A model generated the notes under the pieces. The model ran no database searches, was not told the DNA's origin, and was given only the letters and a program-made list of their open reading frames with translations. This document shows positions 3,562 to 6,355 of a stretch of DNA of 11,130 nt, piece after piece. Every line of letters starts with the position of its first letter. The stretch's first letter is position 1. Source of the DNA: a virus. Its lineage: Duplodnaviria; Heunggongvirae; Uroviricota; Caudoviricetes. Made by a program: the position numbers and the translations under genes. The DNA is taken from IMG/VR virus record IMGVR_UViG_2778261303_000003, one strand, 5' to 3'.

Positions 3562-4644
3562 ATGAAAAAATTAACAGTGGCAATTTCTGCTGTAGCTGCA
3601 TCAGTACTGATGGCGATGTCTGCTCAGGCAGCTGAAATTTATAATAAAGACAGTAACAAGCTGGATCTGTACGGGAAAGTTAATGCTAAGCACTACTTCT
3701 CCTCTAATGATGCAGATGATGGTGATACTACTTATGCCCGTCTTGGCTTCAAAGGTGAAACCCAAATCAACGATCAACTGACTGGTTTCGGTCAGTGGGA
3801 ATATGAATTCAAAGGCAACCGCGCTGAATCTCAAGGTTCCTCCAAAGATAAAACCCGTCTTGCCTTCGCTGGCCTGAAATTCGGTGACTACGGCTCCATC
3901 GATTACGGCCGTAACTACGGTGTAGCATACGACATCGGTGCATGGACCGACGTTCTGCCAGAATTCGGTGGCGATACCTGGACCCAAACAGATGTATTCA
4001 TGACTGGTCGCACCACAGGTGTTGCAACTTATCGTAACAACGACTTCTTTGGTCTGGTTGATGGCCTGAACTTTGCAGCTCAGTATCAGGGCAAAAATGA
4101 CCGAAATGAAGTAACTGAAGCTAATGGCGATGGTTTCGGTTTCTCAACTACTTATGAGTATGAAGGATTCGGCGTGGGTGCAACCTATGCTAAATCTGAT
4201 CGCACTAATAATCAGGTTATCTACGGTAACAACGGTCTGAATGCTTCTGGTCAAAATGCTGAAGTATGGGCAGCTGGTCTGAAATATGATGCGAACAACA
4301 TCTATCTGGCCACCACCTATTCTGAAACCCAGAACATGACTGTTTTTGGTAATAACCATATTGCCAACAAAGCACAAAACTTCGAAGTAGTTGCACAATA
4401 TCAGTTCGACTTCGGTCTGCGTCCGTCCGTTGCTTATCTGCAATCTAAAGGAAAAGACTTGGGTGCTTGGGGTGATCAGGACCTGGTTGAATATATTGAT
4501 GTAGGTGCAACCTATTACTTCAACAAAAATATGTCCACTTTTGTTGACTACAAAATCAACCTGATTGATAAGAGCGATTTCACGAAAGCATCTGGCGTTG
4601 CTACCGATGATATCGTTGCTGTAGGTATGGTTTACCAGTTCTAA
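3562..4644 (+). CDS. nmpC: OmpC/OmpF-family general porin, prophage-encoded (NmpC/Lc-like moron)
   Basis: 360-aa ORF with a typical signal peptide ([23 protein letters not shown]), porin motifs throughout and C-terminal ...VGMVYQF; sits between Q and the lysis genes in the opposite orientation, as nmpC does in DLP12. Confidence 0.92.
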
Positions 4645-5301: not shown

Positions 5302-5439
5302 TCATACTCCTGCTCCTGTCAGGGTTTTGGCGTAATTCTTCAGTATTCGGTAATCGGTCAAAACAGAACCGGGGAAACGATATAAGCGCAGGCGCACCCA
5401 GCGGCGGCGAAGACGCTCTGCCATATAAGACTCAAACAT
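5302..5439 (-). CDS. ylcG: Small basic protein YlcG-like (45 aa), function unknown
   Basis: Not in the ORF track (under 60 aa); hand translation from the ATG at 5439..5437 gives [45 protein letters not shown] then TGA at 5304..5302. Its start overlaps the rusA stop (TGATG), and it sits between rusA and Q as in DLP12. Confidence 0.6.
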   Translation of the reverse strand: MFESYMAERLRRRWVRLRLYRFPGSVLTDYRILKNYAKTLTGAGV

Positions 5440-5801
5440 CATTCATCTCCCAGTTCGGTGATGGTCAGTTCCAGCCTCCCACCTTTGGTAACAGGCATCT
5501 TCACAACGCGGTAATCAACGACCTGAGCATCATCCAGCCAGAAACCTGCTTTAGTGAGTGCGTCAAAAGCGGCTTTTTGCAGATTATCCAGGTCACGGCG
5601 ACGGCGATCCGGCATGTGGCACTCAATGCGGATTTTCACAGGCATAGCCAGGCCGATATCCAGCATTGCGTTTTTAATGATTCGGGCGACGTTATCGCGG
5701 TATGCCTGCCCTTCTGCGCTGATGTGCGTGCGCCCGCGATTATGCCGGTAGTAGCGGTTATTGCTCGGAGGCCAGGGTAATGTGATGCTGTAGGTATTCA
5801 C
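5439..5801 (-). CDS. rusA: RusA Holliday-junction resolvase (crossover junction endodeoxyribonuclease)
   Basis: 120-aa [29 protein letters not shown]... matching RusA; the initiation codon here is GTG (5801..5799), overlapping the stop of the ybcO remnant (GTGA). Confidence 0.93.
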
Positions 5802-5926
5802 GCCTTAATAACCCCCTCTTTCAGCCAGATAACCTGTGTTCTCGCCATACCTTCCAGCGCGCATTCTTTTGCATATGCAGCATCGACTTGCTTGGCATGC
5901 CCTTTACCGGCAATCTTCTGTATGCG
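5798..5926 (-). pseudogene. ybcO: 3' remnant of a ybcO-like gene (DUF1364-type); N-terminal part missing
   Basis: Hand translation of the frame ending at TGA 5800..5798 gives ...[42 protein letters not shown], matching the YbcO C-terminus as remembered, but in-frame TAG codons at 5929..5927 and 5935..5933 and no plausible start leave only about 42 codons. Confidence 0.55.
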
Positions 5927-6007
5927 CTAAACCTAGATAGAATCCACTCTGTGCATATTGAAGCCCGCTCTATGCTTCCTTTCAGGTATTGAAGGGATTG
6001 AGATGGG

Positions 6008-6355
6008 CTAAGCATTATTGGCCTCCTGCATCAGGAGAAAGACAATCATGGCGGCGCGGAGAGGTCTGGTATCAAATATTGGGCTTACGCCTTTTGCATC
6101 CACACACCATTCAGTTAACTGGTCTAAGATAGAAATCCTGTATTTCTCAATAATCGGCCATGAAGCGCTCGGATCATTGCAGTAGTCAGGCAAATGATTT
6201 AATGGCTCAAAAGTTGTATCAGCATTTCCGTAATACCATTTGTTGGTGTTATTCCCTGATGTTTCCGGTTTACTTGCCCAAAGGCCTTTAAAAATTATGT
6301 CTCCTACCATTCTGTTAATTTCAAAATCACTTAACTGTGAATAATCCATTGTCAT
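6008..6355 (-). CDS. Uncharacterized nin-region phage protein (about 114-116 aa); family not recognised with certainty
   Basis: ORF 6008..6391; likely start at the ATG at 6355 (ATGA overlap with the ninE stop) or the ATG at 6349 (GAGG 8 nt upstream). Translation [62 protein letters not shown]... No catalytic motif recognised. Confidence 0.7.

Follow-up and report, generated by a model that had tools for sequence, protein, structure and literature searches.

Introduction

Lambdoid phage genomes are mosaics with abrupt transitions between modules, and joints in their non-essential P-Q region, such as the nin deletions of lambda, leave Q and the late functions working. The nin5 deletion, which takes out terminators, was obtained by laboratory selection for N-independence.

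Among the closest counterparts of the locus described here are the ybcO-rusA-ylcG genes of DLP12, a defective prophage of Escherichia coli K-12, and the orf96-rus genes of phage 82. In the part of PMC12844172 that cites Mahdi et al. 1996, K-12 rusA is described as poorly expressed from its chromosomal context. HusR (YnfL) has been reported to activate rusA-ylcG in stationary phase, with two boxes reported in K-12. The P22-like phages (Salmonella phage L, P22) carry a related ninX-ninF region, which in phage L is accompanied by a full ninF (57 aa), orf101, a 96-aa ybcO homologue and rusA. Deletions that accompany IEE-dependent IS excision are described as having one fixed and variable distal endpoints, spanning up to tens of kb and being joined at 2-4 nt of microhomology (Kusumoto 2011; Calvo 2023, PMC9943667).

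Here, an 11,130-nt stretch of a Caudoviricetes virus (IMG/VR record IMGVR_UViG_2778261303_000003), hereafter the window, was analysed. An earlier note on this DNA, made from the sequence alone, had described a recombination scar at 5798-6015, in which a ybcO-like gene was reduced to a 42-codon remnant overlapping a GTG-initiated rusA of questionable expression. We are confident that this interval of the lambdoid (ev207/mEp332-like) prophage is an ancient mosaic junction of its nin region, inherited both vertically and horizontally, and did not arise by recent decay.

Results

Composite structure of the junction

All genes of the junction lie on the minus strand, where the order is ninX, the first 19 codons of ninF (ninF'), a 70-nt segment termed segment X, the last 30 codons of ybcO ('ybcO) and an intact rusA-ylcG-Q. 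The ninX gene (6008..6349; 113 aa by the PGAP start on an identical locus) matched the Pfam family Phage_P22_NinX with 61.5 bits and was 95% identical in DNA to ninX of Salmonella phage L in pairwise BLAST. Its stop codon TAG (6010-6008) overlaps the following ATG (ATGCTTAG). From 6450 down to 5958, overlap included, pairwise BLAST showed 95% identity with the ninE-ninX-ninF region of phage L; the match ended past ninF codon 19 (...SIERA), which sets the limit of ninF' (5958..6015), a P22/L-type ninF start. The AGGAGG Shine-Dalgarno sequence read at 6022..6027, 6 nt upstream of the ATG at 6015, is the native ninF start signal. Segment X (5888..5957) is an orphan that matches neither flanking partner.

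From 5887 down to 5400, the window was 96.7% identical to ybcO(3')-rusA of K-12 DLP12 in pairwise BLAST. The first feature of this part is 'ybcO (5798..5887), a pseudogene fragment holding the last 30 codons, stop included, of a ybcO of the DLP12/phage-82 type (DUF1364, His-Me finger nuclease). It is followed by rusA (5439..5801; 120 aa, GTG start), an intact Holliday-junction resolvase gene, and by ylcG (5302..5442; 46 aa, PGAP on an identical locus), which shares an ATGA overlap with the stop of rusA. K-12 has the same ATGA, along with the same GTG and GTGA overlap at the start of rusA and the same GAGGGGG element upstream of it.

Compared with K-12 DLP12 and phage 82, the window has ninF' and segment X in place of ybcO codons 1-66, the frame that normally brings ribosomes to the rusA GTG is closed, and the HusR box within ybcO is lost. 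Compared with phage L, it is missing orf101 together with the ninF body and two-thirds of ybcO. This destroys both small genes, NinF having lost its Cys-rich body and YbcO its residues 1-66, which make up most of the His-Me finger domain. The downstream rusA-ylcG-Q genes are unaffected by the scar. In contrast to nin5, the scar is natural and small, and lies within coding sequence, not at gene boundaries.

The earlier note had proposed comparison with intact regions as the way to find the breakpoint. This succeeded in that the breakpoint was located at 5887; what the note had missed is the left partner, made up of the 19 codons of ninF' and the 70-nt segment X. Since the left side consists of the ninF 5' end and an orphan segment, there must be at least two junctions. 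The number and order of the joining events are what we infer from these alignments: at least two illegitimate joining events would lie behind the present structure. In one, ninF would have been joined past codon 19 to a segment of which only the 70 nt of segment X survive; in another, segment X would have been joined at GTCGATGC (window 5887) to the final 30 codons of a DLP12/phage-82-type ybcO. Judged by sequence, with its abrupt switch between flanks similar to different phages and its inheritance in many genomes, the scar is a lambdoid mosaic or deletion joint. It is already known in the form of its PGAP annotation as a DUF1364 pseudogene; a literature search for the scar, or for the recurrent deletion endpoint described below, returned nothing specific.

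Elsewhere in the window, Q and the lysis genes are separated by an intact gene for a 360-aa OmpC/NmpC-type porin (3562-4644, plus strand), which is read from the opposite strand. Its K-12 counterpart, nmpC, is split by IS5.

The ybcO remnant

Minus-strand translation confirmed that the frame ending at 5798 (TGA at 5800-5798) encodes the C-terminus of YbcO and that it is closed upstream by two in-frame stops, both TAG, at 5935-5933 and 5929-5927. The 5' two-thirds of ybcO are absent and the sequence upstream is unrelated, as the description of a recombination scar had held. The stops leave 42 open codons, which the earlier note had taken as the remnant. Four comparisons delimited a shorter stretch. 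Residues 13-42 aligned to residues 67-96 of the 96-aa YbcO structure 3G27. Against Pfam YbcO (PF07102), the frame scored 18.2 bits (E=0.0025), at profile positions 62-92 of 92 and below the Pfam gathering cut-off for YbcO of 29.9 bits. K-12 DNA homology begins at 5887. In tblastn searches of phage genomes, intact phage YbcO homologues matched only residues 11/14-42, orf96 of phage 82 matching residues 14-42, and the first 13 residues were found only in records bearing the same scar. Because the structure, Pfam, DNA and homologue matches cover only that part, the true YbcO remnant is about 30 codons; the other 12 of the 42 open codons belong to segment X and are open by chance.

The remnant falls outside the YbcO family, as residues 1-66 of 3G27, with the Cys-rich part (CQVRIPGVCNG...CSACH), are missing, and PGAP annotates the 90-nt ybcO fragment as a DUF1364 pseudogene, 'incomplete; missing N-terminus'. 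The possibility, raised in the earlier note, that intact ybcO homologues might themselves be only about 42 aa long fell away, intact ones having 96 aa in K-12, phage 82 (orf96) and phage L. In Enterobacter phage ENT1 (L139, ~450-696), a 5'-truncated ybcO retains about 50 C-terminal codons after stops and lies directly before rusA. This truncation is independent; the front of ybcO has therefore been lost, with the 3' end and rusA kept, more than once.

The chimeric reading frame

A 64-codon ORF in another frame (5821..6015, minus strand) starts at the genuine ninF ATG, runs through ninF codons 1-19 and segment X, and ends in the out-of-frame 3' end of ybcO, in agreement with the earlier suggestion that it is a by-product of the junction. 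Only aa 1-19 aligned with NinF of phage L or lambda. The remaining characters of NinF were not found: the length is not about 57 aa, the CxxC...CxxCC motif is missing, and no Pfam family matched at E<=1. The label 'protein ninF', which this 64-aa ORF bears in RefSeq phage records (NC_049949) and also in NCBI protein clusters, is misleading. The PGAP call of a 90-nt DUF1364 pseudogene is correct, and the locus should be read as ninF'-X-'ybcO.

The 64-codon frame was open in 71 of 71 copies, and its sole indel is an in-frame 18-nt repeat expansion. This openness, together with the in-frame indel, could be a hint of constraint. The copies carry about 20 segregating substitutions, a number that by chance would create less than one new stop on average. 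Almost every within-class polymorphism alters the amino acid, and frameshifted, truncated and fused derivatives of the ORF exist. From these sequence features, the ORF is read as a probable translated by-product and not as a gene. The 9-nt unit CAATCCCTT in ninF' (window 5986-6003) varies in copy number; one IMG/VR contig (L084) has two extra units, an in-frame gain of 18 nt that gives SLQSLQSLQ.

Distribution and polymorphism of the junction

A 501-nt query recovered the whole junction, at >=80% coverage, from 572 of the 5,426 complete E. coli genomes, and shorter queries found it in 589-590 of them. It also occurred in 27 deposited phage records, including mEp332, the PhiR and ev series and Chlobot, and several scar-bearing phage records list K-12 MG1655 or E. 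coli C as host. The 71 copies collected from IMG/VR and other loci comprised 49 haplotypes. It follows from this distribution and haplotype number that the scar is old and is carried by functional phages. At 5956, the window has A and 53 of 54 other haplotypes have G, which places Ile for Met in the chimeric ORF and Met for Val in the dead ybcO frame. An exact match to the window over 5880-5965 was found in only five of the 5,426 complete genomes.

Origin and properties of segment X

Outside the scar, segment X had a counterpart only in Stx1-type phages, in a stretch after ninE at 86% identity. In this second class, which comprises 250 STEC genomes and the phages AU6Stx1 and SH2026Stx1, ninF codons 10-19 are followed by segment X across the same ninF'|X joint, again at 86% identity. 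The two classes differ on both sides. The Stx1 class begins with a lambda-type ninE/ninF 5' end (VID*NRSYEQESVERA...; VID*NRSYEQ...) that has a stop and no start, and continues after segment X into unrelated AT-rich DNA and a reverse-strand 590-aa gene, not into ybcO-rusA. Since the second class has the ninF'|X joint and then unrelated DNA, the X|'ybcO joint is the younger of the two. In AU6Stx1 (L006:2440-2600) and the 250 STEC genomes, the ninF 5' end fused to segment X carries TAA for CAA (VID*NRSY). The AT-rich DNA that follows extends for about 380 nt before the 590-aa gene, and the stretch is unannotated in the records. An exact-pattern search of 185,579 species-representative genomes gave one match, in E. 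coli, and IMG/VR held segment X in the two known contexts only.

Several candidate identities of segment X were rejected. As a diverged ninF, as orf101 of phage L or as the missing part of ybcO, it gave local alignments no better than those of shuffled sequences; one marginal reverse-strand match (3/300 among 8 tests) was disregarded. It is also not a variant ybcO allele, since intact homologues of E. coli and Klebsiella phages read ...DEIDRRT(H/R)(F/L)VDA... and not ...IAGKGHAKQVDA...; the truncated ybcO of ENT1 likewise has the DEIDRRT(H/R)(F/L)VDA reading, unlike the scar frame (...IAGKGHAKQVDA... / ...RIQKIAGKGHAKQ...). A structured RNA was not supported, with no Rfam match and a fold energy no better than shuffled (z=+0.88). 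A dif/cer-like Xer site (GCGCATA...GGTAAA), considered by eye, was dismissed because its arms are a poor match and the would-be central region does not include the recurrent breakpoint. Promoter and terminator prediction found none in the scar and none between ninX and rusA; the sole terminator-like site of the scanned interval is at 5400-5383.

Coding by segment X on either strand was rejected as well. The 14 differences between the two classes are spread 5/5/4 over the codon positions in all six frames, and with no third-position bias in any frame, segment X therefore shows no coding constraint. Its nucleotide diversity was 0.0028, compared with 0.008-0.026 in the flanks. We attribute the low value to the absence of alternative alleles for recombination, and constraint may be another cause.

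Integrity and expression of rusA

RusA belongs to its Pfam family, scoring 82.1 bits against PF05866 (cut-off 22.8), and PDB entry 1Q8R was matched across residues 1-120 (E=4e-79). It is identical to K-12 RusA at 117 of 120 residues, and D70, D72 and D91 are all present. These three are reportedly the catalytic aspartates of RusA, according to work by Bolt et al. from 1999.

The position of the rusA GTG inside a GTGA at the stop of the remnant was confirmed. The earlier note had listed this arrangement with the scar; it is the native one of ybcO-rusA. The native upstream 86 nt are retained, and since GTG and the GTGA overlap are identical in K-12, the unusual start was not made by the scar. 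The start is weak, consisting of GTG and, as the only Shine-Dalgarno-like element, GAGGGGG (5812..5818, minus strand; 3' end 10 nt from GTG), and this fits a dependence on upstream translation. One IMG/VR copy (L028) has six G instead of five in GAGGGGG (window 5812-5816), which may reflect either a sequencing error or altered spacing in the start region of rusA.

The GTGA needed for translational coupling is present, but the TAG at 5929-5927 closes the ybcO frame leading to it, and the single ATG within that frame has, as read from the sequence, no usable Shine-Dalgarno element. The stop of the chimeric ORF (TGA, 5823-5821) lies 19 nt before the rusA GTG. The true losses at rusA are thus the coupling to a translated ybcO and one of the two K-12 HusR boxes. 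The box within rusA is kept (5683-5698; plus strand CGGGCGACGTTATCGC; K-12 L003:1124-1139), whereas the one in ybcO codons 14-18 is absent, that part of ybcO being deleted.

The early gene set of the window is complete (cI, cro, cII, O, P, ren, ninB, dam, ninE, ninX ... Q, lysis), and transcription from pR after induction should therefore reach rusA. The doubt that the earlier note cast on rusA expression was borrowed from DLP12; poor expression in K-12 belongs to the context of a defective prophage, and here the early operon from cI to Q is complete. Given the native upstream 86 nt and the catalytic aspartates, there is no specific reason to doubt rusA. After induction, pR transcription would read through the nin region, and ribosomes would start efficiently at the surviving ninF start (AGGAGG, 6 nt, ATG and the overlap with the ninX stop). 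Their product would be a junk peptide of 64 aa, with termination 19 nt short of the weak GTG of rusA. We conjecture that terminated ribosomes might then re-initiate on rusA, standing in for the lost ybcO-rusA GTGA coupling.

A recurrent deletion endpoint in segment X

A protein search started from the 64-aa ORF gave further fusion ORFs, which have only ...KGMPSKSMLHMQKNARWKVWREHRLSG in common with it. The contigs with these fusion ORFs, together with pattern scans of IMG/VR and metagenomes, revealed lambdoid prophages with large early-gene deletions. At least seven independent large deletions were joined exactly at TA|AAGGGCATGCC (5905|5904; CCGGTA|AAGGGCATGCC on the minus strand), a recurrent breakpoint in segment X termed site A. 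Their left partners differ: lambda P codon 33 (L125), lambda P codon 47 (L129), codon 61 of a 434-type cro (L127), two sites near int/xis (L133, L141), the orf60a region (L134) and the ea10/ral region (L135). The right flanks carry different SNP haplotypes. One further contig (L131) has a rightward deletion from site A to 5353|5352 in ylcG.

The joints at site A show 2-4 nt of microhomology (TA), and the native sequence of the left partner continues with C (NTA|C) in all six partners that could be checked. An unbiased comparison of the 1.2 kb upstream gave a junction at 5930 as the sole other truncating one. The remaining upstream breakpoints, at or near gene boundaries, are read as ordinary mosaic exchanges, without individual inspection. 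Derivatives of site A are rare, its right side being found in 590 complete genomes and all of segment X in 589.

A deletion in another contig (L132) starts at 5830 and ends at the same ylcG site as that of L131 (5352-5353, GATTA|CCGAATACTG). In L131 and L132, rusA and most of ylcG are lost and the chimeric ORF is fused to the region upstream of Q. IS100 (IS21 family) was found within the scar in two draft assemblies, at positions corresponding to 5902 (L136:~4108) and about 5875 (L137); each contig breaks off within the IS. Two copies in complete genomes show IS100 with a target duplication of 5 bp (GTTAT, GTACC/ATACC), and these targets resemble site A (GTAAA).

Further candidate causes were rejected. 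IS100 at site A as a common parent was found in none of the 5,426 complete genomes. CRISPR type I-E self-targeting, suggested by an AAG PAM at the breakpoint, does not fit because PAM and protospacer survive in all deletion products. The cleavage preference of RusA (5' of CC) misfits most partners, and for TTAC targeting of the IS200/IS605 type, the C is not kept at the joints.

Discussion

The scar could be recent decay of a defective prophage in this strain, with rusA silent as in K-12 DLP12, or its chimeric frame could be a real conserved protein. Recent decay would suit the breakage of both flanking accessory genes, the deletion of the upstream K-12 HusR box (ybcO codons 14-18) and the poor expression of K-12 rusA as given in the part of PMC12844172 that cites Mahdi et al. 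1996. It is contradicted by the distribution of the junction, since about 590 complete genomes share the identical joint, as do 27 phage genomes, of which some have K-12 or E. coli C as propagation hosts; with the cI-cro-cII-O-P-ren-ninB-dam-ninE-ninX...Q-lysis set complete and rusA intact behind its native upstream 86 nt, we give this reading hardly any credence. That the 64-aa ORF (6015-5821) is a conserved variant of NinF also seems to us improbable, if slightly less so. It has a strong Shine-Dalgarno sequence and an ATG coupled to the ninX stop, was open in all 71 copies with a single in-frame indel (18 nt), and bears the 'protein ninF' label in NC_049949 as well as NCBI protein clusters. 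Against this, NinF sequence is confined to the first 19 aa, the CxxC...CxxCC body is gone with no Pfam match at E<=1, and the last ~22 aa are ybcO in the wrong frame. The homologous stretch of the Stx1 phages has no start codon and an upstream stop, substitutions between the segment-X classes show no third-position excess, within-class polymorphisms are nearly all amino-acid-changing, and derivatives with frameshift, truncation or fusion exist. An ancient mosaic junction with a translated by-product accounts for the interval in our preferred reading.

The shared endpoint of independent deletions raises the further possibility that segment X holds a sequence-specific fragile or target site at site A. 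We entertain this reading tentatively and hold it to be rather less than an even proposition. Seven left partners on different right-flank haplotypes, together with one rightward deletion, meet at the same place, and only one other truncating junction (5930) was seen in the 1.2 kb upstream. A candidate mechanism would be repeated IS insertion, for example of IS100, followed by IS excision with an adjacent deletion and microhomology joining. IS100 lies at 5902 in one draft assembly, from which, given its 5-bp target duplication, the flank would be predicted to start at GTAAAGGGC; the other IS100 targets (GTTAT, GTACC) resemble both site A and the left-partner sites NTAC; and deletions reaching >40 kb next to the IS, joined by microhomology, are reported for IEE-dependent IS excision (PMC9943667). 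However, no IS abutting site A (TAAAGGGCATGCC) was present in 5,426 complete genomes, and the elements reported to respond to IEE do not include the IS21 family. In their endpoints and microhomology, the site-A deletions match the IEE pattern; they differ from it in that IS100, in one draft assembly, is the only IS seen at site A, with none of the IS3, IS1 or IS30 families. In addition, the fixed end observed differs by one base from the flank start predicted for IS100, derivatives are rare (right side in 590 genomes, whole of segment X in 589), and the search for structure, palindromes >8 bp and known motifs found none. The NTA|C signature of the distal partners points to a specific enzyme over random breakage. 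With the same reserve, 5905|5904 may be a mechanistic hot spot that triggers one-sided, TA-microhomology deletions, by which the early and replication genes are stripped and rusA-ylcG-Q-lysis is always spared. The recurrent endpoint is the one unexpected feature of the scar; the rest is ordinary phage mosaicism.

The locus provides a clean example of a within-gene mosaic joint long carried by viable lambdoid phages, and this long carriage shows that NinF and YbcO are dispensable for phage viability (plaque formation and lysogeny). It also shows that rusA can persist without its usual upstream partner. If site A reflects a specific enzyme or IS, it would offer a concrete mechanism of prophage domestication.
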